From positions 147,845-211,844 of the forward strand of contig JAQUTK010000001.1 of assembly GCA_028709785.1 (NCBI GenBank): DNA of 64,000 bases. Reading direction: 5' to 3'. Source of the DNA: Bacteroidales bacterium. Its GTDB lineage: Bacteria; Bacteroidota; Bacteroidia; Bacteroidales; JAQUTK01. Below are positions 3,996 to 49,956 of this stretch, in pieces. The notes under the pieces are model-generated. The model was not told where the DNA came from and searched no databases. It worked only from the letters and a program-made list of their open reading frames with translations. The position numbers and the translations under genes are program-made. Position 1 is the first letter of the stretch. The number at the start of each line of letters is the position of its first letter.

Positions 3996-4018
3996 AACAA
4001 CTTTAATTATTTGATTTA

Positions 4019-4057
4019 CAATGCCTCCGGACTACTTCGGAGGCATTGCTGTTTTCT
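4019..4057 (+). terminator. rho-independent terminator after CotH paralog 1
   Basis: An 11-bp perfect stem (4019-4029 CAATGCCTCCG / 4038-4048 CGGAGGCATTG) with an 8-nt loop, followed by CTGTTTTCTT. Confidence 0.7.
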
Positions 4058-4105
4058 TGCTTTCAGAAAAAGAGACTTTTATGTGTTTTTTATTTGCAGA
4101 TTGTA

Positions 4106-4113
4106 TATCTTTG
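4106..4113 (+). promoter_or_regulatory. -7 promoter box TATCTTTG upstream of CotH paralog 2
   Basis: TAnnTTTG match 31 nt upstream of ATG 4144. The context TATCTTTGCCGCGCATTAA is repeated upstream of paralog 3. Confidence 0.5.
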
Positions 4114-4143
4114 CCGCGCATTAAACTGATACCCATAGTATTT

Positions 4144-7100
4144 ATGAAAAATCTTATCGTTTCCCTTTTCATATCTTTATTCTCCTTTTCGGCTGTAGCC
4201 AGTCCTGTATTTAATCCGACAAAGAAATATCGTATCGCTTGTTTGCAAGATGGAGCTCAGGGCGGCATTGTTTTAGGAAGCAAGCATGAAAGCAATTATC
4301 CATTGTTTTATTATTCAGCTGCGAATTCTGCGACGACAGATGCATATTGGTATATTATAGAAAACGAAGGAACATATTCGTTTAAAAACGCGTCAACAGG
4401 GCAGTATATTTCATACGATATAGATTATACCACAAACAGAAATTTGGGATTAGTATCAGCGTTGAATGCTGATATGACACTCTTTTCTCTGACTTTACAT
4501 TCGAATGGCGGGATTGATTATTATTCATTTAAGTCAGAAAATGATCCGACGAAATTTTTCAACAAGAGAGGCTCTGGACTGGTCGGCTTGTATAGCCCAA
4601 GTAGTGGAACCAGCAGTAATGAACTATTTGCTTTTTATGATGAAGATAATAATGTTGTTAAGGACGATCGAATAGTTGTTATTCCGCAGAAACCTGATCC
4701 TGTTGTTGCCGGACCTTTGGCAACTTACTTTACCGAGTTTACGTTGAGTGGCAAACCTTTGGTCTATAACAGTACGGACGGTTCTTATTTCTTCTCTGTC
4801 CCTTTAAATCTTATGGATGCGGATATTGAGCGCACAATACACTTCATTGCAAAGAATCTGAACGGGAATTATTCAGTGACTATCGACGGTGCGCCTCTTT
4901 TTGATGAGGATGATTATGTGTTTTCAAAAGTGACTGCCGGGAAAAAATACAGTATGGAAGTGAAGGAAGGCACGACGCTAAAGGCGACACTTGATCTGAC
5001 TTTTACAGGACTTCCTATTGTTCAGATTTACTATGATGCTGTAAATTCCAGCGAATATCTGGCCGGATATATTAAAGTACATGAACCGGATAAGAAAACT
5101 GTACCGGAATTTCTTCATTCTGAATACAAATACAGAGGTGCGACTGCTTTGGGACAGCCTAAAAAATCTTTTAATATCAAACTGAAAGATGGTTCGGATC
5201 AAAAACTCTTTCGGAGTTTCTTCGGTCTTCGTGAAGATAACAATTGGGTCTTAGATGCCATGGCTATAGATCCTGGACGAATGCGAAACCGTGTTTCAAC
5301 GGATTTGTGGAATGATTTCTCAAGATTGCCGTATCATAGTGAAACAGAAAGCAACGTAATTAATGGTACAAGGGGACAATTTGTGGAATTGTTTATCAAT
5401 GATCAGTACAATGGATTGTATTGTATGACGGAGAAAGTGGATAGGAAACAGCTGCAACTCAAGAAATATGATGATTCAACCCAGACGGTTCGCGGAGTAT
5501 TGTATAAAGCGTCAGGTTGGAACTATTCCAATTTTATGGGTCATTATGCTGATAATCAGAGTTATCCGGGAACTAATCCGCCTGATTACAATAATAGCAG
5601 TGAGACTTGGGATGGGTATGAGGTAAAACATCCTGATTTTGACGAACAGCCGGTAGACTGGAAACCGTTGTATGATCTTGTTGCATTTAATGCTACAGCG
5701 GCAGTGGATAGTGCCAGGTTTGTCAATGGATACAAATCGTACTTCGATATGCCAGTCTGGCTTGATTACTATCTGTTTATTGATCTCTTGTTGGCGACAG
5801 ATAACCATGGAAAGAATACCTTTATATATACATATGACAAGAATAGATCCAATGTAATGAGCATCGCTCCCTGGGATTTAGATGGTACCTTTGGTCGAAG
5901 ATGGGATGGATCTAACAATATAACGACTCCAAATCAGGATTTCGTATCCTTTCTTATTCAATACGAGCATGGTGAGTATGCCGTATTCAGGAATCTGAAG
6001 AAGTTTAATCCGGACAATTACAATCTGAATCTTCGCTATAGATATGCAGAGTTGCGTAAGACGTACTTTACGAAAGAGAGTCTGATGGCACGTTTCTTAA
6101 AATACAAAGAGATGTTTGACAAAAGTGGTGCCGGAGCACGTGAAACAGCAAAATGGAGTGGCTCTAATGTCAGGATTGACCTGAATGCTGAGATGACCTA
6201 TCTTTCCAGCTGGCTTGATTCGAGGCTTAATTATCTGGATGTAACGGAATTTGATATTGCTCATTTGCCGATGCAACATCCTGTGATTACGCTTTCAACT
6301 CCTAAGACGCTAACGTATGGTAATCCGGCAATAGCCAATCTGTTGGTTACAACCAATCCGAATGCACCGCTCAAGATTTCCTTCTCAAAAAGTGGAGTTG
6401 TTGAAGTGAATGGTAATACGTTAAAGATGCTGAACGCGGGATCTACTTATATGTATGTTTCTCAGGCAGCTTCTATCGGTTATTCAGCTGTCGATACTTC
6501 CTTCTATCTGCAGATTGATAAGAGAAGTCTTGTTGCAAAGGCTGATGATAAGGTGAAAGAAATTGGAGATGAAAATCCGGCGCTTTCAATGACATATGCA
6601 GGACTGGCTTCAGGTGATACCCCCGAACTAGTATTTACCAGCATGCCGACAGTTTCCTGCGCTGCAGTCGTAGATTCTCCAATCGGTACGTATCCTATTC
6701 TAATTGAAGGCGGAGTTGCTAATAGTAATTACGTGTTGAATATGCAAAACGGAACATTGACCATTAATGCCCGTAAGGTGAAAAAGACTCCCGTAATTAC
6801 GTTAGAGTTGCCTGATACGATAACCTATGGTGATGCTCCAATTGAACTTAATCCAATCTCGTCAAATACCTATTCGACTGTCACTTTATACACTTCAAAG
6901 CCGGGTGTTGTCGAAATCAAGGATTCTAAAATGAACATCCTGAATGTTGGATCCCTATATTTGATTGCTTCACAGCCTGGTAATGATATTTATGCGTCAA
7001 CAAATGCGGTTATCAAGTTCCTTATTTCAGTTCAGAAGAAGACGCTCTATGCTGTAGCTGAGGATCAGATAAAAGAACAGGGACAAGAAAATCCGTCGTT

Positions 7101-7533
7101 TACTATTCGATACGAAGGTTTGGTTCTTCCAGACCAGATAAGCAATGTGGTTACCAGTGCTCCCGTTGTTTCCTGTGATGCAAATGCAACTTCTGAAGTG
7201 GGAGAATACCCTATTCTGCTCAGTGGAGGCTCTGTTTCTGCCAACTATCAGCTAGAAAGAAAAGCAGGAGTCTTGACGATTCTTCCCAATACAGGTACCC
7301 CTGTTGAAGCCGAAACTATTCAGGTTGGAATTGCTCCTAACCCGGTACAGGATATACTGAATCTCTCTCAATTGACAACGGGGGTTCTTGTACAGCTTTT
7401 TGATTCTTTCGGCAGAGTGATTTATGTTGAAAAAGCAACGGAACCGACAATTCAAATTCGTATGGAGAGTCAATCTCCGGGTATTTATTACCTGAAAATA
7501 GGAGAGGATACTCATACGATTATAAAGAAATAG
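4144..7533 (+). CDS. secreted CotH-kinase-like protein with two Ig-like+MBG-like modules and a T9SS CTD (paralog 2)
   Basis: The preferred start is ATG 4144 (MKNLIVSLFISLFSFSAVA signal peptide), because the 4021 extension overlaps the upstream terminator and promoter. CotH motifs LREDNNWVLDAMAIDPGRMRNRVSTDLWN, LLATDNHGKNTFIY, PWDLDGTFGRRW. Two ~165-170-aa repeats (6277-6786, 6787-7281) each end in an MBG-like YG..NP...Y.GL...D......P.VSC.A...S..G.YPI...GG....NY......G.LTI. CTD APNPVQD...GIYYLKIG...IIKK. Confidence 0.8.
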   Translation: MKNLIVSLFISLFSFSAVASPVFNPTKKYRIACLQDGAQGGIVLGSKHESNYPLFYYSAANSATTDAYWYIIENEGTYSFKNASTGQYISYDIDYTTNRNLGLVSALNADMTLFSLTLHSNGGIDYYSFKSENDPTKFFNKRGSGLVGLYSPSSGTSSNELFAFYDEDNNVVKDDRIVVIPQKPDPVVAGPLATYFTEFTLSGKPLVYNSTDGSYFFSVPLNLMDADIERTIHFIAKNLNGNYSVTIDGAPLFDEDDYVFSKVTAGKKYSMEVKEGTTLKATLDLTFTGLPIVQIYYDAVNSSEYLAGYIKVHEPDKKTVPEFLHSEYKYRGATALGQPKKSFNIKLKDGSDQKLFRSFFGLREDNNWVLDAMAIDPGRMRNRVSTDLWNDFSRLPYHSETESNVINGTRGQFVELFINDQYNGLYCMTEKVDRKQLQLKKYDDSTQTVRGVLYKASGWNYSNFMGHYADNQSYPGTNPPDYNNSSETWDGYEVKHPDFDEQPVDWKPLYDLVAFNATAAVDSARFVNGYKSYFDMPVWLDYYLFIDLLLATDNHGKNTFIYTYDKNRSNVMSIAPWDLDGTFGRRWDGSNNITTPNQDFVSFLIQYEHGEYAVFRNLKKFNPDNYNLNLRYRYAELRKTYFTKESLMARFLKYKEMFDKSGAGARETAKWSGSNVRIDLNAEMTYLSSWLDSRLNYLDVTEFDIAHLPMQHPVITLSTPKTLTYGNPAIANLLVTTNPNAPLKISFSKSGVVEVNGNTLKMLNAGSTYMYVSQAASIGYSAVDTSFYLQIDKRSLVAKADDKVKEIGDENPALSMTYAGLASGDTPELVFTSMPTVSCAAVVDSPIGTYPILIEGGVANSNYVLNMQNGTLTINARKVKKTPVITLELPDTITYGDAPIELNPISSNTYSTVTLYTSKPGVVEIKDSKMNILNVGSLYLIASQPGNDIYASTNAVIKFLISVQKKTLYAVAEDQIKEQGQENPSFTIRYEGLVLPDQISNVVTSAPVVSCDANATSEVGEYPILLSGGSVSANYQLERKAGVLTILPNTGTPVEAETIQVGIAPNPVQDILNLSQLTTGVLVQLFDSFGRVIYVEKATEPTIQIRMESQSPGIYYLKIGEDTHTIIKK

Positions 7534-7553
7534 CAGAATATTAGCTATAATAA

Positions 7554-7590
7554 TAAAGGCTGTCAACTGAAGAGGCAGCCTTTGTTGTTA
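7554..7590 (+). terminator. rho-independent terminator after CotH paralog 2
   Basis: Stem AAAGGCTG (7554-7561) / CAGCCTTT (7575-7582), followed by a T-rich tail GTTGTTATTG. Confidence 0.6.
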
Positions 7591-7677
7591 TTGTATTAAT
7601 GAAAGGTTACAAAATGTGTAGTTATCATCTGAATGTCTAAAAATAGTCTAAAGTGGGTTTTATCACAAAATATTCCT

Positions 7678-7685
7678 TATCTTTG
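7678..7685 (+). promoter_or_regulatory. -7 promoter box TATCTTTG upstream of CotH paralog 3
   Basis: TAnnTTTG match within TATCTTTGCCGCATTAA, 29 nt upstream of GTG 7714. Confidence 0.5.
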
Positions 7686-7713
7686 CCGCATTAATGATTT
7701 ATTTACAACTGAC

Positions 7714-10623
7714 GTGAAACATTTTATTACTACCCTGTTAATAGTCTTATTCCCACTATTTTCCACAGCAAGCCCTGTATTTAAAACTAACACTAGTTAC
7801 CGTATTGCTTGTATCCAAGACGGCAATAAAGGCGGCATAGTTACCGGAGATTTGCATAGCAGTACTTATCCAATAGTTTATGATCCCGCTGCAGCTTCTA
7901 CTGTTGCTGATGCCTTTTGGATAATTACTGAGATTGGCACAGGATCTGGGAAATATACCATCCAGAATGCGTCAACAAAGCAATACATTTCGTATGACAC
8001 TAATTACGATCCGAAAAGAAATTTGACATTAGTAGATGCATTGAATGGTGATACGACCTTATTTAAACTTACTTTACATACAGTGAATGGTGTCGATTAT
8101 TATTCAATTTCGTCTGTTGCAGTTCCTGGCTTAGTTTTTAACCGAAGAGGGAGTGATAAGGAAAATATGGTGGGCTTTTATACTCATGACGGTTCAAGTA
8201 CCAATGAGCAATTTGCTTTTTATGATGCAAGCGGTGCGGTTGTGAAAGATGACGCTGTGACGGTCATTGTGGATGAAGGTACTGCTTTGGCTGTTTCCGG
8301 CCCGTTGGCTGCCTATCTTGGTGAGTTCTCGCTGAGCGGTAAGCCACTTGTTTATAATAAAAGATCTGGGTTCAGTACTTATTTTTTCTCAGTTCCTCTG
8401 ACTTTGATGGATAATGACGTAGAGCGTACTGTTCACTTTACGGTTAAGAATACCGCTTATACTGTAACTATCAACGGCACAAAAGTGACCGATGAGAGTG
8501 ATTATACATTTGCCGATGTCACAGCAGGAAAAAACTTCACAATTAAAATAATGAATGGAACCCGCGAGTTGCTTTCCACTACATTGACATTTACCGGGTT
8601 GCCGATCGTGCAAATGACGTATGCCTCCGTCAATGGGAATGTGTATTCTCCCGGTTTTATTACCGTTCATGAGCCGGCAAAGAATCTGACTCCGGAGAAA
8701 TTGAATTCGGAATATAAATGGCGTGGTGCCACAGCAATGGGTCAAGCAAAAAAATCGTTCAATATAAAGTTAAAAGACGCTCTTGGTGAAAAGATGCACA
8801 AGAGTTTTTTTGGTTTGCGTGAAGATAACAATTGGGTGTTGGATGCCATGGCAATTGATTATGCACGTATGAGAAACCGCGTATCAACCGATTTGTGGAA
8901 TGATTTTTCTACTCCACCCTATCAAACGTCTTTCGAGAATGGAGTGATCAATGGAACTCGTGGGCAGTTTGTGGAAGTATTTATCAATGAAGAATATTCG
9001 GGCTTGTATTGCATGACAGAGAAAGTTGACAGAAAGCAACTTAAACTGAAAAAATACGATGAAGTAACGAAACAGGTTAACGGCGTACTCTACAAATCTA
9101 CAGATTGGTCTTTTGAAGTTTTTATGGGAGGATCTAATAATGATCAACCTCAAAAAACATCTGTTCCTGATCCGATGGACTATCAGGGTGAATCCTGGAA
9201 TGGTTTTGAGGCTAAATATCCCGATTTGGGTGATGGTGAAGTCGTGGACTGGAGACCATTGTATTCAGCGGTCAATTTTACGGCCTTTTCATCCAATGAT
9301 TATTTTGCTTCAAATGTCAATCAAGCATTTGATATGCCCGTTATGACAGATTATTATCTGTTTATAGAGCTGCTTTTGGCAACAGACAATCAAGGGAAAA
9401 ACATGTACTTTTATGCGTATGACAAAAATACATCCGGTAAGATTAGTGTTGCTCCATGGGATTGTGACGGCACCTTTGGCCGAAGATGGAATGGCTCAAA
9501 AGACTGGGGATCTGGAAACTGTCTTCCGGAACAAGACTTTACAGCTTTTGTTATCGCCAATGAACATGGACAGAGCAATCTCTTTATGCGATTGATGCAG
9601 GGCAATGTCAATGGTTTCAATAACTCCTTACGGATGCGCTATGCTCAACTACGTAGTACCTTCTTCTCTCCGGAGAAGCTGATCGCTCGTTTTACTGCTT
9701 ACAACGCTATGTTTGAAAAGAGTGGCGCGGGAGCTCGCGAAGTATCCCGCTGGAACGGTTATAGTGTGAGCAATCTGAATTTTCAGTCTGAAATAAACTT
9801 CCTAACGGATTGGATCACAAGGAGAATAGCCTATCTGGATAATCAGTATGATTATGGAAGTCTGGGAAAGAAAGCTCCTCAGATAACATTGTCTATACCT
9901 GACACTATTACATATGGTGATGGTGCAGTTGATTTCACTCTGACATCCACGAACAAAGAAACTCCAATCAAATATTCATTCTCTGTTCCTGATATCTTTT
10001 CAGTAAATGAAACTTCTACCAAATTAATTCCGTTGAGAGCCGGCTCGTTATTATTGAATGTCAGTCAAGCATATAGCGATACCTATGCGAAGTTGGATAC
10101 CTCTATTTTTATGAAGGTTTATAAGAAGAACCTCTATGTAATTGCTGATAATAAGCAAAAAGAGTCAGGTACTGCAAATCCGGACTTTTCATATCATTAC
10201 GAAGGGTTACTTCCTACTGATAATCTGGCTCAGGTGTTCTCGATTTATCCGACAGTTTCCTGTGAGGCAACTGCAGAATCACCTGACGGAGAATATCCGA
10301 TTGTTGCATCCAAAGGTTTTGTGCTTGCAAGAGTGAACTATAATATTGTTCCTGTCAATGGTGTTCTGACGATTGGATCCATACAGTCCGGTGCTAAAGA
10401 TGAGACCATTTCTGTGGGCATCTATCCAAATCCTGTTTCTGATGTTTTAAGGATCAGCAATCTTGCACAGGGTACTTCTGTCATTATAGTTGACTCATAT
10501 GGAAGGATTATTTATTCCGGAAAAGCGGATGAAGAGGAAATGCAGATTGATCTCAGAGGTCGTGATGCCGGTTTATACTATCTCAAAGCCGGGGATAAGA
10601 GCTATAAGATTATCAAGAAATAA
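7714..10623 (+). CDS. secreted CotH-kinase-like protein with one Ig-like+MBG-like module and a T9SS CTD (paralog 3)
   Basis: The preferred start is GTG 7714 (VKHFITTLLIVLFPLFSTA aligns with the signal peptides of paralogs 1 and 2). The ATG 7633 extension lies upstream of the promoter box. CotH motifs LREDNNWVLDAMAIDYARMRNRVSTDLWN, LLATDNQGKNMYFY, PWDCDGTFGRRW. One Ig+MBG module at 9874-10374. CTD YPNPVSD...GLYYLKAG...KIIKK. Confidence 0.75.
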   Translation: MKHFITTLLIVLFPLFSTASPVFKTNTSYRIACIQDGNKGGIVTGDLHSSTYPIVYDPAAASTVADAFWIITEIGTGSGKYTIQNASTKQYISYDTNYDPKRNLTLVDALNGDTTLFKLTLHTVNGVDYYSISSVAVPGLVFNRRGSDKENMVGFYTHDGSSTNEQFAFYDASGAVVKDDAVTVIVDEGTALAVSGPLAAYLGEFSLSGKPLVYNKRSGFSTYFFSVPLTLMDNDVERTVHFTVKNTAYTVTINGTKVTDESDYTFADVTAGKNFTIKIMNGTRELLSTTLTFTGLPIVQMTYASVNGNVYSPGFITVHEPAKNLTPEKLNSEYKWRGATAMGQAKKSFNIKLKDALGEKMHKSFFGLREDNNWVLDAMAIDYARMRNRVSTDLWNDFSTPPYQTSFENGVINGTRGQFVEVFINEEYSGLYCMTEKVDRKQLKLKKYDEVTKQVNGVLYKSTDWSFEVFMGGSNNDQPQKTSVPDPMDYQGESWNGFEAKYPDLGDGEVVDWRPLYSAVNFTAFSSNDYFASNVNQAFDMPVMTDYYLFIELLLATDNQGKNMYFYAYDKNTSGKISVAPWDCDGTFGRRWNGSKDWGSGNCLPEQDFTAFVIANEHGQSNLFMRLMQGNVNGFNNSLRMRYAQLRSTFFSPEKLIARFTAYNAMFEKSGAGAREVSRWNGYSVSNLNFQSEINFLTDWITRRIAYLDNQYDYGSLGKKAPQITLSIPDTITYGDGAVDFTLTSTNKETPIKYSFSVPDIFSVNETSTKLIPLRAGSLLLNVSQAYSDTYAKLDTSIFMKVYKKNLYVIADNKQKESGTANPDFSYHYEGLLPTDNLAQVFSIYPTVSCEATAESPDGEYPIVASKGFVLARVNYNIVPVNGVLTIGSIQSGAKDETISVGIYPNPVSDVLRISNLAQGTSVIIVDSYGRIIYSGKADEEEMQIDLRGRDAGLYYLKAGDKSYKIIKK

Positions 10624-10642
10624 TACACTTGTATTTGTAATA

Positions 10643-10680
10643 AAAAAAGGAAGTCTTTGGTAAGGCTTCCTTTTTTGTTT
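10643..10680 (+). terminator. rho-independent (bidirectional-type) terminator after CotH paralog 3
   Basis: AAAAAAGGAAG (10643-10653) pairs with CTTCCTTTTTT (10666-10676), with further inner pairs. It has an A-run on the left and a T-run on the right. Confidence 0.7.
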
Positions 10681-10788
10681 GATAGAAAGTATCCTAAAGA
10701 TTGATAGAGCGATATTTTTGTCTGAAGAATACTTTGATATCTGTAATTCCATTATCTTTGAGGAATTATTAATTTAAAAGAGAGAACT

Positions 10789-11346
10789 ATGGCTTTATTT
10801 ATTGTATTAGGAGTAATAGTAATAATCGTACTTTGGGTTATTTCTATGTACAACTCGTTGGTCAGACTCAGAAACAACCGCGAGAATGCGTTTGCTGACA
10901 TTGACGTGCAGTTGAAACAACGTCATGATTTGATTCCTCAGTTGGTCGAGACGGTCAGAGGCTATGCTTCGCATGAAAAAGAGACACTTGACCGGGTTGT
11001 AAGTGCGCGTAATGGCGCGATAGGAGCTCGTACCATCGATGATAAAATTGTAGCTGAAAACATGCTGACAACAGCTTTAGCCGGACTAAAAGTGACCGTC
11101 GAGGCTTATCCGGATCTGAAGGCTAATCAAAACTTTATGCAATTGCAGGAAGAGATTTCAGATATTGAGAACAAACTTTCTGCTGTACGTCGCTTCTTCA
11201 ACTCTGCCACAAAAGAATTTAACAATGCCGTGCAGGTATTTCCGTCCAATCTGATTGCAGGGATGTTCGGATTCCACAAGGAAATGATGTTTGACTTAGG
11301 CGAACAACGCGCTAGTCTGGAAGAAGCTCCAACCATTAAGTTCTAA
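10789..11346 (+). CDS. lemA: LemA family membrane protein
   Basis: 185 aa with an N-terminal TM helix, then YNSLVRLRN..ENAFADIDVQLKQRHDLIPQLVETV and EAYPDLKANQNF, characteristic of LemA. Confidence 0.8.
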   Translation: MALFIVLGVIVIIVLWVISMYNSLVRLRNNRENAFADIDVQLKQRHDLIPQLVETVRGYASHEKETLDRVVSARNGAIGARTIDDKIVAENMLTTALAGLKVTVEAYPDLKANQNFMQLQEEISDIENKLSAVRRFFNSATKEFNNAVQVFPSNLIAGMFGFHKEMMFDLGEQRASLEEAPTIKF

Positions 11347-11358
11347 AAACGATTATCT

Positions 11359-12327
11359 ATGCAATATGTTGGAATAGAAACACAACAGAGAACGAATAAC
11401 TTTCGCTCTGTTGTGCTGCTTGTTCTTTTTCCCTGCCTGGTCATTCTTCTGACTTATCTGTTTTGCTTTCTGTTGACCATGCTGACGGTTCGACGTTATC
11501 CGGGTAACCCTCTTCCGATGGAAACAGCCAATGTCATGTTTGTGAATTATGCGCCGGTTGTCCTTTTGGGCGTATTAGTCTGGTTTTTTGTCGCCTATTT
11601 TGCCAACACATGGATTATAAACAACTCGACAGGAGCTGTCCCGTTAGAGCGCAAAGACAATAAAAGAGTCTACAATCTGGTCGAAAACCTTTGTATGAGC
11701 CGGGGAATGAAAATGCCCAAGGTGAATATTATCTATGATGACTCCCTAAATGCTTATGCAAGTGGCATCAATGAAAGTAGTTATACCGTGACCCTTTCCA
11801 AGGGAATTATAGAAAAGTTGGATGACAGTGAACTGGAGACTGTGATTGCACACGAACTGACTCATATCCGTAACAGGGATGTGCGGGTCTTGATTGTGTC
11901 GATTGTTTTTGTCGGATTGTTTTCCATGTTGGCGCAAATAGCGATTCGTTCCCTTTATTACTCATCATTGGGACGGAGTAACCGTAATGGCAAAGGTAGT
12001 GCCTTGCCGATACTCTTGATTGTGATAGCAGTGGCGGCGATAGGATTCTTTTTTGCCTCTTTAATGCGCTTTGCAATCTCGCGTAATAGGGAATTTATGG
12101 CGGATGCGGGTGCGGCCGAGATGACCAAAAACCCTCATGCTCTGGCTAGTGCGTTACGCAAGATTTCCAACGATCCCGAGATAGAAGCAGTGACCCGTAA
12201 CGATGTTGCTCAATTATTTATCGAGCATCCCCATACGAAAAGTGAAAGCTATTTCAGTGGATTGAGTGGCTTGTTTGCAACACACCCACCTATCAAGAAA
12301 AGAATAGAGATATTGGAGCAGTTTTGA
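11359..12327 (+). CDS. M48 family zinc metalloprotease (HtpX-like), membrane-bound
   Basis: HELTHIRNRD (HExxH) lies between TM segments, and the protein has a C-terminal ATHPPIKKRI motif typical of M48/HtpX. It forms an operon-like pair with lemA (12-nt gap). Confidence 0.8.
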   Translation: MQYVGIETQQRTNNFRSVVLLVLFPCLVILLTYLFCFLLTMLTVRRYPGNPLPMETANVMFVNYAPVVLLGVLVWFFVAYFANTWIINNSTGAVPLERKDNKRVYNLVENLCMSRGMKMPKVNIIYDDSLNAYASGINESSYTVTLSKGIIEKLDDSELETVIAHELTHIRNRDVRVLIVSIVFVGLFSMLAQIAIRSLYYSSLGRSNRNGKGSALPILLIVIAVAAIGFFFASLMRFAISRNREFMADAGAAEMTKNPHALASALRKISNDPEIEAVTRNDVAQLFIEHPHTKSESYFSGLSGLFATHPPIKKRIEILEQF

Positions 12328-12365
12328 TAACAATTGCTTCTCAACATTTTTAATAACATGCATGT

Positions 12366-13289
12366 ATGGATTTTCAACTAATCGATGCACATTCCCATTT
12401 GTGGCTAAAACAAGACGCCGAAGTCGATGGAATGGCGATCAAAACCCTTGAAAACGGCCGGTCTCAGTTTATGGGTGAGATACGACAAATGTTGCCTCCC
12501 TTTATGATTGACGGACGAAACACAGCAGAAATCTTTCTTTCAAACATGGATTATGCACTGGTATCTGCGGCTGTGATTACCCAAGAATATATTGACGGCA
12601 TCCAGAACGACTACTTGATGCAAGTGATGACGCACTATCCGGAACGCTTTTTTGTCTGTGGCATGTGCGAGTTTCGTCGTCCCGGATTCTTTGAGCAGGG
12701 TAAGGAGCTGATCGCTTTGGGCTTTAAGGCACTAAAGATTCCGGCTCAACGATTACTGTTGAAAGAAGGAAGAGTCTTCTTGAACTCTGATGAGATGATG
12801 AAGCTTTTTCACTTTATGGAAGAGAAGCACATTATACTCTCCGTTGATCTGGCGGATGGCGACATTCAAACAGGCGAATTGGAAGAGGTGATTCGGGAGT
12901 GTCCGAAACTCAAGATTGCAATTGGTCATTTTGGAATGGTGACGCGTCCGAAATGGGAGGAACAAATCAAACTCGCTCGTTATCCCAATGTTCGTATTGA
13001 GTCAGGAGGAATAACATGGCTTTTCAACGAAGAGTTTTATCCTTTTAAAGGAGCAGTGAAAGCTATCTGTCGGGCTGCCGAATTGGTAGGAATGGATAAA
13101 TTGATGTGGGGTTCTGATTATCCTCGTACCATTACGGCGATCACGTATAAGATGTCTTATGACTTTGTACTCAAGTCGAAAGAATTAACAGAGACCGATA
13201 AGGCACAGTTTCTCGGGAAGAATGCCATTGAATTTTACGGTTTTAAGAATTTACCGGTATTGCCGTCTATCAAGAATATGTCCGAATAG
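12366..13289 (+). CDS. amidohydrolase-2 type metal-dependent hydrolase (TIM barrel)
   Basis: 307 aa. N-terminal IDAHSHLW metal-binding motif, later GHFG and WGSDYP motifs typical of the amidohydrolase-2 family. The substrate is unknown. Confidence 0.6.
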   Translation: MDFQLIDAHSHLWLKQDAEVDGMAIKTLENGRSQFMGEIRQMLPPFMIDGRNTAEIFLSNMDYALVSAAVITQEYIDGIQNDYLMQVMTHYPERFFVCGMCEFRRPGFFEQGKELIALGFKALKIPAQRLLLKEGRVFLNSDEMMKLFHFMEEKHIILSVDLADGDIQTGELEEVIRECPKLKIAIGHFGMVTRPKWEEQIKLARYPNVRIESGGITWLFNEEFYPFKGAVKAICRAAELVGMDKLMWGSDYPRTITAITYKMSYDFVLKSKELTETDKAQFLGKNAIEFYGFKNLPVLPSIKNMSE

Positions 13290-13395
13290 CATTGATTGTG
13301 TCATTAGTGCCGTCAATTTGTCAGATAAAAAGATTGGTATATGATTTGTGAGTTATGTGGGCAAACGAATTTAATAACATATAACAAATCATAGT

Positions 13396-38002: not shown

Positions 38003-38641
38003 TTATGGCCGTTGGATTAAATTCTTCTTAAGATACCAAACTACAATGCCGTTATACGGTTTATAATCCCCATGAATATCAATATTATCCCATTCATTTA
38101 TTATCTTTTGAATACTACTTTTTTTCCAAGGATTAGTTTTGTTCAGAATTGAAGTTATAGCAGCTATAACTTCCTTTCGATTTCTCTTTAGTAGTTTGTT
38201 ATTCAGATTAAGAATAGAATTAATTTCATGATTCCAAGTAGGATTAGTTGATTTAATCTTACCGTCTGAAGTATCGTATTCTATTGTTTGTACAAAATGG
38301 TCTTCGAATATTGGAATTGTTATATCCTTATCGCCCTTCAATTTGTCGCAATGAAAGTTGTTGTTAATGGCTCCAGGACAACAAATAACCATATTCTTAT
38401 AGTCGAGTTGTAATTCTTCATGATTCTCTTGACTTAGGACATGGTCAATTCTGGTTGTCTCATTACTATTTTTGTCTTTAATAGGTATTCTACGCATACA
38501 ATAAGCGCAAATATTTCCTTGATCTTTTAATAGTGCATCAGCTAATTCAGGAATTCGTTGATATTTGACACCAGGAGTTAGTCTATATTCTGTCCATTCA
38601 CGCGGCTCATTGCCTTTATTTATCTTCCTCATTGTCGTCAA
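38003..38641 (-). CDS. HNH-type nuclease, PtuB-like (Septu-like module, nuclease component)
   Basis: 212 aa. Cys/His pattern CAYC...RIDHVLSQ...ICCPG...FHCDKLKG typical of the small HNH proteins that partner ABC-type ATPases. Its start overlaps the upstream ATPase gene by 26 nt. Very low GC (17/60 in sample 38161-38220). Confidence 0.6.
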   Translation of the reverse strand: MTTMRKINKGNEPREWTEYRLTPGVKYQRIPELADALLKDQGNICAYCMRRIPIKDKNSNETTRIDHVLSQENHEELQLDYKNMVICCPGAINNNFHCDKLKGDKDITIPIFEDHFVQTIEYDTSDGKIKSTNPTWNHEINSILNLNNKLLKRNRKEVIAAITSILNKTNPWKKSSIQKIINEWDNIDIHGDYKPYNGIVVWYLKKNLIQRP

Positions 38642-39899
38642 TTATCTGAAAGTTCAACATGGTTTCTGCTCTGATCAGCTCCGGCAGACTGTCACCAAAC
38701 CTTTGTTGCATATCTATCAAGATCGATCTTGCTTCATTTCCTTGATTATTATCAATCAGAGAAAATAAGTTTTTTAATTCATCATCTACCTCTTTCGACC
38801 GGGGAGTCGTATCAAGCGCAACATCAATAATTGTTGAAGCATCCATTCCGTAGAGCTCAACCGGAATTGCACTGTAACCGTTTTCGTTGGAATAGTCAAG
38901 TTTGTAAATAATGTTGTCGTCGTCGGATTTGATGCTTGTCATTACCATAGGCGCATGAGAAGTAACAATAAAGCGAAGTTCAGGAAATGCGAAACGCAGC
39001 CCCTGTATAACTACCGATTGTAAAGTTGGGTGTAAATGTAAATCAACTTCATCAATCAAAACAGTACCGGTTGTTTTGAGACAAGCCTCTTCGCCATAAA
39101 TGCCTTGATTCAGTAGTGCACAACGGAAAGCCAAGTCGGTCACCATATTTACCAATCTTTTATAGCCATCAGATAAGTTATTGGAGCTTACTTCTCTGCC
39201 ATCCGTAAAGTGATAATATACTTTACTTTGATTATGACGTATTTCCATATCGTTAATAATGCCACAACCATCATTGCCCAATGCTCGCTGAATGGCTTGT
39301 TGCACGCAAGATAATTCAATTTTTCCCTTACCTCCTTCTTTGAGTACCAACAGTCTTTTTGTCCAATACGGAAAGAAACCATTGCCTTGCAAACACTCAT
39401 AATACCCAAAAGAAGGTTTGTGATAATACTCTGTAAAAGGAGTCATAGATAATTTGCGGACACTGTGTATATCTTCGGTTGAAAAGCTGGCAAAAAGAGG
39501 TAGTGGCTTTACTTGAACATCGCCTTTGAAAAGGGATTCTTGCAATTCTCTTGCATAATCTGAAATTGGGTAAAGTGGCGTTCTTTGTGTACTACCTTTT
39601 TCTGTGTTTAATACCAACTGAGCGGATTTGCCTAATAAATCGAAGTTGACAGTAATTGGAGAATCATTTAAAAAGCCCGTACTCGACATTTTTTCGGTAA
39701 AGTCGTATTTGGATAATCCTACAAACCGTGTATTATCATCACTAAATCCTGTAAAGAAAGAATTGAGTGCATAGCTTATGGCTTTAATAATGGTTGTTTT
39801 TCCGCTTGAATTGTCACCAATCAGCAGATTTGTTTTGGACTTAAATGATATTTTCAGATACTCATAGCATTTGAAGTTAATCAATTCAATGTTAGTCAT
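38616..39899 (-). CDS. ABC/SMC-like AAA ATPase, PtuA-like (Septu-like module, ATPase component)
   Basis: 427 aa. Walker A LLIGDNSSGKTT near the N-terminus, signature-like LSDGYKR, Walker B VLIDEVDLHLHP, H-loop VTSH. Confidence 0.65.
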   Translation of the reverse strand: MTNIELINFKCYEYLKISFKSKTNLLIGDNSSGKTTIIKAISYALNSFFTGFSDDNTRFVGLSKYDFTEKMSSTGFLNDSPITVNFDLLGKSAQLVLNTEKGSTQRTPLYPISDYARELQESLFKGDVQVKPLPLFASFSTEDIHSVRKLSMTPFTEYYHKPSFGYYECLQGNGFFPYWTKRLLVLKEGGKGKIELSCVQQAIQRALGNDGCGIINDMEIRHNQSKVYYHFTDGREVSSNNLSDGYKRLVNMVTDLAFRCALLNQGIYGEEACLKTTGTVLIDEVDLHLHPTLQSVVIQGLRFAFPELRFIVTSHAPMVMTSIKSDDDNIIYKLDYSNENGYSAIPVELYGMDASTIIDVALDTTPRSKEVDDELKNLFSLIDNNQGNEARSILIDMQQRFGDSLPELIRAETMLNFQIIDDNEEDK

Positions 39900-45216: not shown

Positions 45217-45363
45217 TCTCCTCTTATAAAAACCATGAGCTATAATCGTTTATCACTATGTCGTTTGTTGCCTAAGAACCAACCCGAAACAAAAGTTCAA
45301 AGATCAGGGAAGCAAATTAATCCAAACCAGAAGATAAAGTCAAGCAATAAGGACGCAAAAGTT

Positions 45364-45435
45364 ATATCAAGCCCTGATACAATCGTATCAAAGCCTGATA
45401 CAATTATTTCAGGCACTGATATGATTATTTCAGGC
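45364..45435 (+). promoter_or_regulatory. phased direct repeats upstream of the HU-like gene (candidate operator/iteron-like array)
   Basis: The CTGATA core recurs at 45374, 45395 and 45416, an exact 21-bp period. TATCAA(G/A)(C)CCTGATACAAT occurs twice (45364, 45386) and ATTATTTCAGGC occurs twice (45403, 45424). Confidence 0.5.
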
Positions 45436-45506
45436 TTTGAAATAGGAAATATGTCCGGAAATGAGTATCTTTACATCCTAACAAAGAAAACATTTATTCC
45501 TACAAG

Positions 45507-46139
45507 ATGGCAAAATATATCAAACAAGAAATGCCCGACTTTCAAGGCACAGGTGAAACCAAGTGCTTTTATCGGCTACAGACCAGTGGTACTCTTAGTC
45601 CCAAAGAGCTAATAACCCGTATTGCTCAACCCGGTTCGGGATTGAGTGAAGGTACAGTGGCACATGTGCTTCAATCACTGAAAGATGAAATGGCAAAAGC
45701 AATGGCAGACGGCTATAGTGTTTCGGTCGATGGTCTCGGTATATTCAAGGCATCAATAAGTGTCCGTGAAGACAAGGAGATGGATACCATCAACGGCGAT
45801 GAACCAAAACATAATGCCACCAGTTTGCAAGTGACCGGTATCAATTATAGAGCAAACAAAGCATTGATCAGTAAAACTGATTCACATTGCCGTTTGGTAC
45901 GTGGTGGAGTGCGCGAACTTTGCCGTTCGTCTTATACGAAAGAAGAGCGACTACAGTTGGCACTCGATTTTCTGAATGATCCTGCTCATCCGTTCATGCG
46001 ATTGGATGATTATGTGGCACTGACAGGATTGTCTAAACCGGCGGCTTCCAGAGAACTTATTGAGTTTAGAGCGAATACGGAGACTGGCATTACTACGATA
46101 GGTCGAGCTACAAGTAAAGTGTATACAAAAAGAGGGTAA
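45507..46139 (+). CDS. Bacteroidales HU-like DNA-binding protein with C-terminal extension (HU-HIG type)
   Basis: 210 aa. MAKYIKQEM...TKCFYRLQTSGTLSPKELITRIAQPGSGLSEGTVAHVLQSLKDEMAKAMADGYSVSVDGLGIFKASI matches the histone-like HU fold family common near mobile or accessory DNA in Bacteroides. A possible winged-helix tail follows. Confidence 0.65.
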   Translation: MAKYIKQEMPDFQGTGETKCFYRLQTSGTLSPKELITRIAQPGSGLSEGTVAHVLQSLKDEMAKAMADGYSVSVDGLGIFKASISVREDKEMDTINGDEPKHNATSLQVTGINYRANKALISKTDSHCRLVRGGVRELCRSSYTKEERLQLALDFLNDPAHPFMRLDDYVALTGLSKPAASRELIEFRANTETGITTIGRATSKVYTKRG

Positions 46140-46149
46140 AAGGTAAAGG

Positions 46150-46554
46150 GGCAATACTTGATAATTATTAATTAGAGTTATGCGGCAATAGCGGCAAACT
46201 TGATAAGTTCTTTGGCTTACATTGTAGTATCGGTTGAGAAATAGAGTTTTCTTAGAGAAAAAGGCATCAGCGACAATGTATTGAATAACAGGATGAATAT
46301 TCTCTTTGATTCCATCGAGTGCAAACAGATACCCGTCCTTCAAAGTCCCTGGCAAAGACCTGCCGTAAACGTTGCTCAATGGAGTCCGAATACCGGCCCA
46401 TTTGAAGAATATTTATTTTTCTTGGTATAACCCTATATAGTAACAGTGACTCTATGATGAATGATTTGAAACTTTTGTTTAATTTCGCTGTGAACTCATC
46501 TACGACATTGTTGCAGACACTTCTATGTTGGTTAAGTATACTTGATCTTCTCAT
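46150..46554 (-). pseudogene. possible frameshifted and truncated DDE-transposase (IS) remnant
   Basis: Two overlapping minus-strand frames lack a full-length ORF. One reads ...GRSLPGTLKDGYLFALDGIKENIHPVIQYIVADAFFSKK, where the VADAFFSKK-type motif resembles IS4/IS701-like transposases as I recall them. No inverted repeats were identified. Confidence 0.3.
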
Positions 46555-46713: not shown

Positions 46714-47580
46714 ATGATGGAAAAACTAAAAATAAGCCAATATAAAACGACATTCGACTCCATTGCCCATTACATCGAGAACGAACATAAAGAACAGGTC
46801 GAAATTTGGTTTGCAAGAGAATTGCAGACAATCTTAGGCTATGCACGTTGGGAAAACTTTGTTGTAGCCATAAACCGTGCTGTCGAATCGTGCAAAACGC
46901 AGGGTGTCAATGTGGATGATCATTTTCGTGAGGTCACGAAAATGATCGAGATAGGGAAAGGTGGTAAGCGTGAAGTAGAAGATTACATGCTTACTCGTTT
47001 TGCTTGCTACTTGATAGCTCAAAATGGCGACCCTAAAAAAGAAGAAATTGCCTTTGCTCAGAGCTATTTTGCCATTCAAACCCGAAAAATTGAACTTATT
47101 GAAGAACGTATAAACCTGAAATCCCGAATGGAAACCCGCGATAAGTTGCGGGCTGCCGAAAAACAACTCTCACAAAATATTTACGAAAGAGGCGTTGACG
47201 ATAGAGGTTTTGGACGTATCCGTTCGAAAGGCGACACCGCTTTGTTTGGCGGATACACCACCGAGTATATGAAACACCGACTCGGCGTTAAATCTACCCG
47301 TCCGCTTGCCGACTTTTTGCCAACGCTTACCATAGCCGCAAAGAACTTGGCAACCGAAATGACCAACTACAATGTGAACGAAAAAGACTTGCAGGGCGAG
47401 TCGTCCATAACCACCGAGCATGTACAAAACAATATAACCGTGCGCGAAATGTTAGGCAAACGAGGTATAAAACCCGAAGAATTGCCACCTGCTGAAGATA
47501 TTAAAAAGATGGAACGCCGTGTAGCAACCGACGAAAAGAAATTAGAACAATCAACCAAGAAGCTCCCAAAAAATGAATAA
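46714..47580 (+). CDS. dinD: DNA damage-inducible protein D homolog
   Basis: 288 aa. It is colinear with E. coli DinD as I recall it (W.AREL...LGY..W.NF...I.RA..SC...G....DHF.E...M..IG.G.KR...D..L.R.ACYL.AQNGDP.K..IA.AQ.YFAIQTR). It is commonly embedded in Bacteroides type I R-M loci. Confidence 0.75.
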   Translation: MMEKLKISQYKTTFDSIAHYIENEHKEQVEIWFARELQTILGYARWENFVVAINRAVESCKTQGVNVDDHFREVTKMIEIGKGGKREVEDYMLTRFACYLIAQNGDPKKEEIAFAQSYFAIQTRKIELIEERINLKSRMETRDKLRAAEKQLSQNIYERGVDDRGFGRIRSKGDTALFGGYTTEYMKHRLGVKSTRPLADFLPTLTIAAKNLATEMTNYNVNEKDLQGESSITTEHVQNNITVREMLGKRGIKPEELPPAEDIKKMERRVATDEKKLEQSTKKLPKNE

Positions 47581-47701
47581 AATAGAAGAACTCATTAAAC
47601 AGCTTTGTCCAGACGGGGTGGAATGTAAGGAAATGGGAGAGGTAGCCCATTCTAATTTAAAATACTTTTATCGGACAGCAATACTTCTAATCCTAATTTG
47701 A
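47573..47701 (+). pseudogene. hsdS: type I restriction-modification specificity subunit (hsdS) N-terminal stub, 42 codons
   Basis: The ATG overlaps the dinD stop. MNKIEELIKQLCPDGVECKEMGEVA is the conserved HsdS N-terminus. Similarity ends at about 47650, and the frame stops at TGA 47699-47701, directly abutting the helicase ATG. Confidence 0.6.
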
Positions 47702-49792
47702 ATGAATATTGAAAATCTGAATCCCAGTCAACGGAAAGCTGTTGAATATAATGGAAAACATTTACTTGTGCTTGCAGGAGCAGGTACTGGAAAAACTCAT
47801 ACTATTATAAGTCGTGCAGCTTATCTGATTGCAAATGGAGTCCAAGGTAAAAGGATTCAAATACTATCATTTACACGAAAATCAGCAAGTGAAATTGTAG
47901 AGCGTGTAAACTCGATGTTTCGTGAAAGTAAAGATGCAAAGCAGTTGAATGGGTCTACTTTTCACGCATGGTGTATGAATATAATAAAAACTAATCCAAA
48001 GGTTTTTAAGGTAAGTGATTACACTGTCATTGACAGAGATGACCAATTAGGGGTATTTAAACTTATATGTGGCAGAAATCCAAAGGTTATTGATGAAACA
48101 AGATTAAACGCAAAGACACTATTGGATTTATACTCTTTTGCAAGAAATACTCGCAAGAATATTACAGAAACAGTTAGATTTAAATGCTTGAACAATTCAA
48201 AAGATGGTAAAGCAGATAAGGAAATCGAGAAAATAAAGCCTTATCTGGTTTCTGTCTTTTCAACCTATGAATCAAAAAAAAGAGAAAGGAAATACCTTGA
48301 TTATGATGATATTTTAAATGTGGTTGCAATTGGATTAAAAAACAATAAGGAAGCTAGGGATTATATTACATCTCAATATGACCATATATTAGTAGATGAA
48401 ATGCAGGACACCAACCCTCTGCAGTGGGAACTTCTAAGCTCCTTTCAGGAAAAGTGTTGCTTATTTTGTGTAGGTGACGATGCTCAATCGATATATGCAT
48501 TTAGAGGTGCTGATTTTACAAACGTTCATAAATTTAACGAAAGGGTTCCTGATTCAGAAATATATCGTTTGGAAGACAATTATCGTTCAACTCAAGAGAT
48601 ACTAGATTTATCAAATTGGCTTCTAAAACAATCCCCATTATGTTACAATAAGAAACTTAATGCAACAAGAGGATCAGGTGAATTGCCTGTTATAATGAAT
48701 TTTGAAAATGAATGGAGAGAAGCAGATTGGGTAGCTTGCGATATATTAGATAATTTCACAAAGGATGGATTAGAATATAATAATCATCTTGTTTTAGTTA
48801 GGTCTGTCTATGCTGGTAGGTCAATTGAACGTTCTTTATTAGAGAAAAAGATTCCTTATGTTGTATTTGGTGGTGTAGGACTTATGGCATCTGCCCACAT
48901 TAGGGATGTTGCATCTGCACTGAGAATTATAGCAAACATTTATGATGAGATTGCTTGGATGAGATATTTACAATTGTGGGAAAAAATTGGAGATGTAACA
49001 GCCTCAAATTTAATAACAGAGCTTTTAGAATTATCTGACATTGATGAATGTCTCGTATTATTGAAAAAGAAAAATTTAAAAGACCAAGGTTTAGTAGATA
49101 CGTTATCTGCAATAAAAGGACTTAATAATAAACCCTCAGATGCCATACGCATAGCATTAGCCATTATGGAATCTCGGTTAGCTATTAATTATAAAGGCGA
49201 ATGGGAAAAGAAGAGAAAACCAGATTTTCAAGTACTAATGCAGCTAGCAGAAAAGCATGGTTCGATTAGCGAGTTTATTGCCGAATATGTATTAGATCCA
49301 CAATTGAATGAGGCTAGTGCTTTCGGTTCAGACTCAAAAGAGGCAGTTACAATTTCTACTATTCATTCGGCAAAAGGGCTGGAAGCTAAGGTGTGTTATG
49401 TCATAAACGTTTCCGTTGGCGCATATCCAAGCACAAGGTCGATAGATGAAGGAGAAGATGCAGTCGAAGAAGAACGTCGTGTGCTTTATGTAGCACTAAC
49501 TAGAGCAAAAGATGAATTGTACGTGACTAGAATTATTACTAAAATTCAGGATTATAGTCAATCAAGAATTCAACAAATAAATTCAGAATGTGAAGGTGTT
49601 TATTCATCTCAAATTATAGAACAACAAGATGATACAGATTCAGAAAAAAAATCAACTGTATATTTCTTAGATGAATTACCATCTGAATTAGTCATTGATA
49701 AAATATCTGAACAAACTAGATTTGAGATTTCAACAAAAACATATACTGGAAAACCTATTGCAGAAAATGATTTTGGAATGGACTTAAGCTAA
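47702..49792 (+). CDS. UvrD/Rep/PcrA-family superfamily-1 helicase, low-GC cassette
   Basis: 696 aa with intact SF1 motifs: Q-region LNPSQRKAV, I AGAGTGKT, II VDEMQDTNPLQ, III VGDDAQSIYAFRGA, IV EDNYRSTQEIL, V TIHSAKGLE, VI YVALTRAKDELYV. A ~95-aa acidic C-terminal tail of unknown function follows. GC is 21/60 in sample 48001-48060. Confidence 0.8.
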   Translation: MNIENLNPSQRKAVEYNGKHLLVLAGAGTGKTHTIISRAAYLIANGVQGKRIQILSFTRKSASEIVERVNSMFRESKDAKQLNGSTFHAWCMNIIKTNPKVFKVSDYTVIDRDDQLGVFKLICGRNPKVIDETRLNAKTLLDLYSFARNTRKNITETVRFKCLNNSKDGKADKEIEKIKPYLVSVFSTYESKKRERKYLDYDDILNVVAIGLKNNKEARDYITSQYDHILVDEMQDTNPLQWELLSSFQEKCCLFCVGDDAQSIYAFRGADFTNVHKFNERVPDSEIYRLEDNYRSTQEILDLSNWLLKQSPLCYNKKLNATRGSGELPVIMNFENEWREADWVACDILDNFTKDGLEYNNHLVLVRSVYAGRSIERSLLEKKIPYVVFGGVGLMASAHIRDVASALRIIANIYDEIAWMRYLQLWEKIGDVTASNLITELLELSDIDECLVLLKKKNLKDQGLVDTLSAIKGLNNKPSDAIRIALAIMESRLAINYKGEWEKKRKPDFQVLMQLAEKHGSISEFIAEYVLDPQLNEASAFGSDSKEAVTISTIHSAKGLEAKVCYVINVSVGAYPSTRSIDEGEDAVEEERRVLYVALTRAKDELYVTRIITKIQDYSQSRIQQINSECEGVYSSQIIEQQDDTDSEKKSTVYFLDELPSELVIDKISEQTRFEISTKTYTGKPIAENDFGMDLS

Positions 49793-49904
49793 AGTGTAAA
49801 TTCTAATTGGTATGTCAAAAGAGGGTAACCTCTCTTTTCATCCCACATTACATCTGTTCCCGCTCATTTATCCCAAAATAACCCGTACATCTCCGCATTT
49901 TATT

Positions 49905-49912
49905 TATTTTTG
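49905..49912 (+). promoter_or_regulatory. -7 promoter box TATTTTTG upstream of tamB
   Basis: TAnnTTTG match 45 nt upstream of ATG 49957. Confidence 0.4.
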
Positions 49913-49956
49913 TAGGTACAACCAAAGGCTGAGTAGAGATGGCGTGGACTTTGACG

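Follow-up and report, generated by a model that had tools for sequence, protein, structure and literature searches.

We analysed a 64-kb stretch of a Bacteroidales contig (JAQUTK010000001.1), referred to here as the window, and focused on a helicase gene at the edge of its defence island. The open reading frame (ORF) occupies positions 47702–49792 of the plus strand, begins with ATG and encodes a 696-aa superfamily 1A (SF1A) helicase resembling UvrD, PcrA and Rep and belonging to a clade that lacks the Tudor domain. The product is 100% identical to an 'ATP-dependent helicase' (MDD4821070.1) of a Bacteroidales metagenome-assembled genome. The island spans about 29.85–49.87 kb, with the helicase at its tamB-proximal end. 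On the minus strand lies a type 1 bacteriophage exclusion (BREX) system (brxA, brxB, brxC, pglX, pglZ and brxL), with a Septu pair between brxC and pglX (38003–39899, minus strand; PtuA 1.7e-164, PtuB 3.3e-66). The plus strand carries a HU-HIG gene, a DinD-like gene, an hsdS stub and the helicase, followed by tamB/tamL and other core genes. Core genes also make up the window outside the island.

The helicase motifs are all in place. They lie at residues 6–14 (Q), 25–32 (I, the Walker A sequence AGAGTGKT; 47774–47797, plus strand), 55–62 (Ia), 230–237 (II, LVDEMQDT), 257–270 (III, VGDDAQSIYAFRGA), 293–297 (IV, NYRST), 552–561 (V, STIHSAKGLE) and 594–603 (VI, VLYVALTRAK), and the Walker A motif is invariant throughout the clade. 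Pfam returns UvrD-helicase (9e-63) and UvrD_C (1e-46) and nothing further of substance. With motifs Q, I, Ia and II–VI intact and both Pfam domains present, the protein qualifies at the superfamily level as SF1A UvrD/Rep/PcrA-like. An AlphaFold2 (AF2) model with a predicted local distance difference test (pLDDT) score of 80 confirms the 1A/1B/2A/2B fold. Its best Foldseek matches (4c30, 2is2, 3pjr and 1uaa; template modelling score 0.74–0.80 over ~630 columns) are UvrD of D. radiodurans and of E. coli, PcrA and Rep. The helicase is an intact, ATP-driven SF1A enzyme with the full four-subdomain UvrD/PcrA/Rep architecture.

Pfam gives no nuclease or methylase domain in the helicase, and Pfam and PADLOC give no partner gene at the locus. 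An initial annotation had described a 696-aa SF1 helicase with all motifs, directly after an hsdS stub and without nuclease, methylase or partner gene. The ORF and motif positions match this description, and the domain scans and neighbour clustering agree with it. It had also pointed to two A8 runs within the ORF, and both are present (48274–48281 and 49644–49651). Neither run is conserved in relatives; one represents Lys-Lys codons and the other falls within a variable insert, and phase variation through the runs was rejected on these grounds.

A single-gene cassette in place of restriction–modification genes

The helicase begins where an hsdS gene breaks off. The N-terminal hsdS stub (47573–47701, plus strand) has 42 codons, of which about 25 are HsdS-like and the remainder derive from the junction. 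Its ATG overlaps the dinD stop codon (ATGAATAA), and its TGA abuts the helicase ATG. Stub residues 1 to ~17–25 align with HsdS N-termini at weak E-values (0.1–5), with a consistent annotation in four of seven matches. The type I restriction–modification (R-M) operon is incomplete: no hsdS with target-recognition domains, no hsdM and no hsdR occur anywhere in the 64-kb window. No hsdS stub was found 5' of the helicase in relatives. Since only 146 nt separate the helicase stop codon from tamB, the incoming gene replaced the distal part of the type I R-M operon. The exact placement at the hsdS break, as originally described, is thus borne out, with the remainder of hsdS replaced rather than split off.

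Base composition sets the helicase apart from its surroundings. Its GC content is 33.6% (22.0% at third codon positions, GC3), compared with 42.7% for dinD, 39–43% for the BREX genes, 47.9% for tamB (GC3 53%) and ~48% for flanking core genes, and the earlier remark that it is more AT-rich than dinD and tamB is confirmed. Against relatives 75–86% identical in DNA, blastn aligned only 47695–49801, 47683–49788 and 47701–49788. The shared sequence beyond the ORF amounts to a leader of ~25 nt and ~10 nt past the stop, and everything further out differs. We place the right edge of the cassette at the 3' end of DNA homology with the closest relative (49793–49801, plus strand). The closest relatives (75–89% amino acid identity) occupy a different genomic place each time. 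Because DNA homology ends ~10–25 nt from the ORF ends, the gene moves as a single-gene cassette. It came by horizontal transfer from a low-GC donor, as a unit of short leader plus ORF, and now stands where the distal portion of a decayed type I R-M operon had been, at that end of the BREX-1/Septu island which faces tamB. The locus thereby documents the decay and overwriting of such an operon at a BREX island edge. The initial annotation had considered a mobile helicase unrelated to housekeeping enzymes; the gene is indeed intact, imported and single, and its best fold matches are the housekeeping enzymes UvrD, PcrA and Rep. A search of the cassette ends for target duplications, inverted repeats and attC-like sites returned only short two-copy repeats, the best of 23 nt.

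The DinD-like gene (46714–47580, plus strand) matches the PADLOC candidate PDC-S13 (3.7e-117) and NF008573 (3e-109, above the cut-off) and carries a Bro-N domain. Its translation is coupled to that of the hsdS stub, and nothing else is left of the type I R-M operon. Lying on the same strand, with no gap and no terminator before the helicase, dinD is the probable source of helicase transcription. A short 5' leader common to relatives (ACTTCTAAxCCxAAxxTGA) occupies 47676–47701 (plus strand). Upstream of it, relatives have a AATTTGAC box of TTTG type, which by our reading resembles, as a partial match, the Bacteroidetes -7 element; the window copy has CAATAC instead. As the helicase's own 5' box is degenerate, its expression probably occurs by read-through from dinD.

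Downstream of the helicase lies a weak terminator-like hairpin with a T-run (49820–49843, plus strand), consisting of the stem-loop AGAGG-GTAA-CCTCT (49820–49833) and then CTTTTC. The hairpin had been noted before and does exist; its significance does not hold up, with one terminator-like site in the 3.7 kb scanned against 2.0 ± 1.6 expected by chance. Positions 49810–49828 repeat the last 19 nt of the HU ORF (46121–46139), and this second copy supplies the hairpin's left arm; from its sequence, the hairpin may be a displaced HU-gene terminator. There is also a 23-nt, AT-rich direct repeat (46410–46432 and 49901–49923, the latter just 5' of tamB), whose score of 31 exceeds the best of 300 shuffles (30). 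Both short direct repeats are collinear and bracket the dinD–stub–helicase block. They may stem from insertion of this block 3' of the HU gene or may both represent promoter or terminator consensus.

A Tudor-less helicase clade and its C-terminal motif

The helicase has thousands of homologs, the best 120 of which are 665–745 aa long, 47–90% identical and nearly all full length. Among the matches listed, the sources are Bacteroidota, Firmicutes, Moraxellaceae, Kuenenia, Synergistaceae and IMG/VR viral contigs. In a neighbour-joining tree, built without support values, they form one monophyletic clade that includes neither UvrD and Rep of E. coli nor any of 15 generic UvrD-like genes. Clade members are 26–28% identical to E. 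coli UvrD and Rep (28% for the window helicase and Rep), whereas UvrD and Rep share 38%. The NCBIfam equivalog cut-offs for PcrA (342 bits vs 911, TIGR01073), Rep (331 vs 951 and 256 vs 1168 bits, TIGR01074 and NF008172) and UvrD (280 vs 1144 and 287 vs 965 bits, TIGR01075 and NF008743) are all missed. The window helicase is neither UvrD, Rep nor PcrA, is very probably not a Gabija component, and belongs to a distinct Tudor-less clade. This clade represents an uncharacterised, widely transferred third type of UvrD/Rep/PcrA-like helicase. One member, in Gillisia marina (L029, 6479–8613), is split into ORFs of 609 and 110 aa and is probably a frameshifted pseudogene or a sequencing error.

A further difference from the known enzymes is found at the C-terminus. 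The tail of the window helicase comprises 93 aa, of which 19 are acidic and 9 basic. It consists of a helix (residues 612–631), a disordered acidic insert, the sequence YFLDELP, ~30 variable residues and a terminal FGMDLS. The variable acidic insert (residues 617–653; 49550–49660, plus strand) starts with the helix end, continues as disorder and contains the second A8 run. It has a gap fraction of 0.25–0.52 and a conservation of 0.12–0.39, is absent from about half of the homologs, and AF2 gives a pLDDT below 50 at residues 622–650. YFLDELP (residues 654–660; 49661–49681, plus strand) corresponds to PSRFLxELP, the last strand of domain 2A in Rep-type helicases, which reads '...PSRFLLELP' in E. 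coli Rep. Within the clade Y654 and F655 are invariant, and P660 is conserved in at least 90%.

The terminal FGMDLS (49772–49789, plus strand) is predicted to be disordered and corresponds to a clade signature, G-Φ-D-Φ-[S/N/D]-COOH. Among the top matches the endings are GMDFS (33), GMDLS (9), GFDFN (8) and similar ones. GIDLD or GIDFD closes the two core copies of Acinetobacter as well as the A. marinus protein, and in the viral copies L097 and L100 the last residues are DFDFN or NFNFD. Neither UvrD and Rep nor the generic homologs have this terminus; several of the latter finish with a Tudor-type domain. The clade protein in turn has no Tudor-like C-terminal domain (GxRVxHxxFGxG-type, as in E. 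coli UvrD), but a short, mostly disordered tail instead. The initial annotation had described an acidic tail of ~95 aa without a recognisable motif. Its acidity stands; YFLDELP and FGMDLS show that it is not free of motifs. Structure prediction and conservation resolve the tail mostly into a linker plus canonical and clade-wide motifs. Since FGMDLS is disordered in the model, it is a candidate docking peptide, and its persistence in different phyla and in prophage copies speaks for a cellular partner that is likewise conserved.

Compared with UvrD, PcrA and Rep, the clade thus has the same motifs, both Pfam domains, the 1A/1B/2A/2B fold and the end-of-2A element YFLDELP, and some members share repair-type neighbours (polA, Vsr, uracil-DNA glycosylase (UDG) and topA). 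It differs in its low identity and below-cut-off scores, in a patchy, cassette-like distribution, and in having an acidic variable linker and the G-Φ-D-Φ-[S/N/D] end in place of the Tudor-like domain.

Genomic contexts of the clade

The contexts of clade members were compared at ~35 independent loci, denoted by L-numbers, a small sample that is biased by the contigs returned among the matches listed. ORFs in the relatives' loci were called by a simple longest-ORF rule. Among the closest relatives, at 75–89% identity, six of the eight informative contexts have known or candidate defence genes within ~5 kb. Besides the window itself (BREX, Septu, PDC-S13 and the hsdS stub), these are a locus with Lamassu LmuA/LmuC/LmuB 4 kb upstream (L011), one with a PDC-S06 ATPase, two small ORFs and a group II intron reverse transcriptase (L007), one with a caspase-like gene, PDC-S05, the helicase and AbiP2 57 nt downstream (L188), one with PDC-S02 98 nt upstream (L189), and one in which the last 44 helicase codons are in frame with a truncated N6-methyltransferase of IIG/PglX type (L195). 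The PDC neighbours are themselves only candidate defence genes. The two contexts that are not defence-adjacent have LytTR two-component genes and the hut operon (L001), or polA 20 nt downstream with core genes around and a helicase GC equal to that of the flanks (L201). The latter is a 75%-identical relative, and this polA-linked copy nests among island-borne copies in the tree. The window copy's own lineage is found mostly in defence islands.

The fused gene at L195 (6942–8135) is a 397-aa ORF that combines the methyltransferase motif DPACGSGAF with the C-terminal 44 helicase codons, and the DNA downstream of it is 88% identical to L007. As a deletion scar, this fusion indicates that the helicase once adjoined an R-M gene there too.

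More distant members occur in a wider range of places. Of those 40–60% identical, two adjoin type IIG R-M genes (L006 and L016). Another (L176) lies in an integrative element with a methylase and GmrSD, in the order integrase, HTH_17, a 692-aa protein, DUF3127 and helicase, and a fourth (L177) has a divergent WYL regulator, with GmrSD/SLFN and HsdM nearby. Single-member defence matches among the neighbours of clade members were seen only in a detailed per-neighbour scan, not in the summary PADLOC and Pfam scans of 129 neighbours. Element or prophage backbones surround further copies (L003, L018 and L181–183). At L181–183 the helicase comes directly after an integrase and before AAA_24 and DUF3871 genes, and L003 has AAA_25 and DUF6371 genes nearby. 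Enrichment of homologs in defence islands is suggested by the closest relatives (six of eight contexts); over the whole clade about one third of this small, not genome-wide sample is defence-adjacent, and core and repair contexts occur too.

Repair-type neighbours recur at several loci. A 52%-identical copy (L180) has polA 36 nt upstream and UDG, Tag and UvrB nearby; elsewhere Vsr lies directly upstream of the helicase (L173) or an HD protein is a neighbour (L184). At both polA-linked loci (L201, 2700–7644; L180, 5149–10067) the two genes share a strand; the loci belong to separate lineages, and the order of the genes is reversed between them. At the remaining loci examined, including 66 generic UvrD loci, polA is not next to the helicase. 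All-against-all ORF clustering of ~32 clade loci revealed no conserved partner gene beyond close genome relatives, and only polA recurs beside the helicase across lineages, twice. The closest three relatives have small same-strand ORFs 5' of the helicase (189, 161 and 194 aa), which are mutually unrelated and have no Pfam or PADLOC match.

In Acinetobacter the clade member is a syntenic core gene downstream of topA in three species (L172, A. baumannii CP035931.1; L019; L021), with a gene for a small RRM-type RNA-binding protein next. This 'ATP-dependent helicase' (QBF37876.1) is of the same clade as the window protein, with 44–47% identity over the full length, YFLxxLP and a GIDLD end. It differs in being core, syntenic, outside islands and not low-GC relative to its host. 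Each A. baumannii chromosome has two UvrD-like matches, the clade member and one other; because there is only one other, the clade member may fill the Rep role in Acinetobacter.

Copies also occur on twelve IMG/VR contigs at 40–51% identity, one group adjoining an SbcC-like gene, and the best PHROG match of the window helicase is phrog_1967 'DNA helicase' (2e-102). In related prophages (L097–L100 and L103, ~9000–13300) the gene lies in a plus-strand block between minus-strand tape-measure and tail genes. The block contains small ORFs, the helicase and a GNAT acetyltransferase or other small genes; the helicase is constant while its neighbours vary. Copies of the L097/L100 type share the terminal motif with the window protein. 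L097-type copies differ from it by a possible N-terminal extension of up to ~150 aa, whose extent is uncertain from longest-ORF calls. The prophage copies also differ in setting, being part of accessory or replication modules, whereas the window has no phage genes. Cultured-phage and plasmid collections contain no clade members except mislabelled Acinetobacter chromosomes. Some of these are filed publicly as plasmids or as 'Acinetobacter phage MD-2021a'.

Possible roles of the island-borne helicase

We tentatively favour, with a probability of about 0.45, a mobile repair/replication-type helicase that is carried as island cargo and possibly assists DNA transactions there, rather than a self-sufficient immune system. 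The clade behaves in a repair/replication-like manner, as judged from Acinetobacter core synteny, polA, Vsr and UDG neighbours and a housekeeping-type fold. Such a helicase would load on nicked or gapped DNA, as UvrD and PcrA do. It would then move 3'→5' on single-stranded DNA, unwinding DNA or stripping off proteins. Through its flexible acidic linker and the G-Φ-D-Φ-S peptide at the end of it, the helicase is probably held to some conserved protein of the cell. The foremost candidate is DNA polymerase I, or else a further component of the replisome or repair machinery, as no neighbour other than polA recurs in more than one lineage. The window copy would be a putative extra, island-borne copy, probably transcribed by read-through from the dinD promoter. 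The helicase would thus circulate among defence islands, integrative elements and prophages, assisting or buffering DNA transactions.

Several observations weigh against this reading. Known or candidate defence genes lie within ~5 kb in six of the eight close-relative contexts, and four to five more distant members adjoin type IIG R-M, GmrSD or HsdM. In a crude control at 1e-10, the 129 neighbours of clade members matched 151 PADLOC families and the 129 neighbours of generic UvrD genes 34, mostly from one kinase. This defence-island pattern is typical of immune genes and is not wholly accounted for by a passive 'recombination sink'. As for the C-terminal motif, its proposed partner is a guess; polA adjacency was seen only twice.

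The same pattern could mean that the helicase itself restricts invading DNA, as the stand-alone defence gene for which the initial annotation had taken it; we consider this possible but doubtful. The enzyme might strip or unwind at phage or plasmid replication intermediates, or burn (d)NTPs when stimulated by DNA ends, with the peptide placing it at replisomes. Island residence in the close contexts and in four to five distant ones is consistent with such a role, as are cassette mobility with ORF-exact boundaries, a foreign GC content and the opposite-strand accessory block inside prophage tail modules. UvrD-like helicases have also been recruited to Gabija, type II Gabija and DarHTG (PMC13069673). 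The filter behind the PADLOC candidates removed proteins like non-defence eggNOG groups (10.1101/2024.01.29.577857), by which, we infer, a UvrD-like helicase would be hidden. However, the protein has no effector domain and no conserved partner, its fold is nearest to housekeeping helicases, and across the whole clade only ~1/3 of contexts are defence-adjacent. Also in the clade are core genes with conserved synteny and copies linked to polA, Vsr or HD genes, and one polA-linked copy nests among those from islands. A literature search turned up no report of a UvrD-type gene of this kind that alone provides defence or anti-defence. The island setting claimed for a stand-alone candidate is therefore upheld, with six of eight close contexts and no partner, and a self-sufficient role is only partly supported, since core and repair copies exist. 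Orthologs that are syntenic core genes, named at the outset as evidence against a defence role, do occur for part of the clade: in Acinetobacter they adjoin topA, and the polA-linked L201 and L180 lie in core or repair neighbourhoods. An unlikely variant is a nuclease-free, single-gene immune or counter-immune module, spread as a promoter-plus-ORF cassette, whose peptide would dock on a universal replication or repair protein and whose motor alone would block or rescue invader replication.

Integrase-linked copies (L176 and L181–183), the AAA_25 and DUF6371 genes at L003, the twelve IMG/VR contigs with their SbcC-adjoining group, and the phrog_1967 match would fit a helper or counter-defence helicase of mobile elements or phages, the window copy being an element leftover. 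It would serve element or phage replication (for example rolling-circle or nick-primed) that otherwise needs host PcrA, Rep or UvrD, or immune evasion. We judge this distinctly unlikely for the window gene, as integrase, relaxase, primase and phage genes are all missing from the 64-kb window, whose RNA genes, one tRNA-Arg and one tmRNA, are both distant from the island. The lack of clade members in cultured-phage and plasmid collections, mislabelled chromosomes aside, also speaks against a helper role, and the closest relatives have defence genes rather than element backbones as neighbours.

Gabija consists of GajA (an OLD-type ATPase with a TOPRIM nuclease) and GajB, and UvrD-like helicases are components of Gabija, type II Gabija and DarHTG (PMC13069673). 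Like these helicases, the window protein is of the UvrD family and lies in a defence island, and GajB models head its PADLOC matches (8.8e-73 and 244 bits for the best, over the full length), as would be expected of an orphan GajB, the helicase half of Gabija left after loss of gajA. Such an origin is nevertheless very improbable, and we rejected it. No OLD-type ATPase–TOPRIM gene is adjacent here or in the Pfam-annotated neighbourhoods of relatives, and none recurs in the ~32 clustered loci. PtuA, which lies 8 kb off, has an HNH partner of its own in PtuB. Scores of at most 244 bits are comparable to those of the PcrA and Rep models and thus at the generic UvrD level, against ~700 bits for clade members at 50% identity. 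The fold is nearer to UvrD, PcrA and Rep, with no GajB chain among the top 50 Foldseek matches, and members of the clade remain full length and retain a C-terminal motif of their own. More broadly, no GajA, GajC or DarTG partner is present here or in relatives, and the window helicase retains the 2B domain in contrast to DarH. A fused nuclease as in Nhi-like, Hhe and Hna proteins is also missing; Pfam gives helicase domains only, and the model consists of a UvrD core with a short tail.

PADLOC 'phage defence candidates' were defined by their embedding in BREX, DISARM, Hma or type I R-M systems (Payne et al., 10.1101/2024.01.29.577857). The helicase shares this niche, lying beside PDC-S13 here and PDC-S02, PDC-S05 and PDC-S06 in relatives. 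It differs in that it is not itself a PADLOC model and sits at the end of a decayed R-M operon, not inside an intact one. If the island copies do act in immunity, defence or counter-defence would be carried out by a plain UvrD-type motor without a nuclease, and pipelines that discard 'replication/repair' orthologous groups would have overlooked it. Even without an immune role, the clade offers a testable docking motif and a possible occupant of the Rep slot in Acinetobacter.

Other features of the window were also recorded. The Septu pair has a GC content of 32–37%, below the 39–43% of the BREX genes, and its position within BREX is an instance of the 'embedded defence system' pattern of Payne et al. 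2024 (10.1101/2024.01.29.577857). Within the dinD coding sequence lies a perfect palindrome of 14+14 nt with a 2-nt spacer (46918–46947; GATCATTTTCGTGA GG TCACGAAAATGATC), which chance would not be expected to produce in 5.4 kb. An unannotated 125-aa ORF (45235–45612) just ahead of the HU-HIG gene contains a tandem 21-nt repeat (TATCAAGCCCTGATACAATCG, two copies) overlapping a 25-nt inverted repeat (84% complementary, 3-nt loop), together spanning 45365–45440. At 1479–10623 (plus strand) there are three tandem paralogues of 838, 1170 and 996 aa, each with a CotH-kinase domain and a type IX secretion system (T9SS) C-terminal sorting domain.

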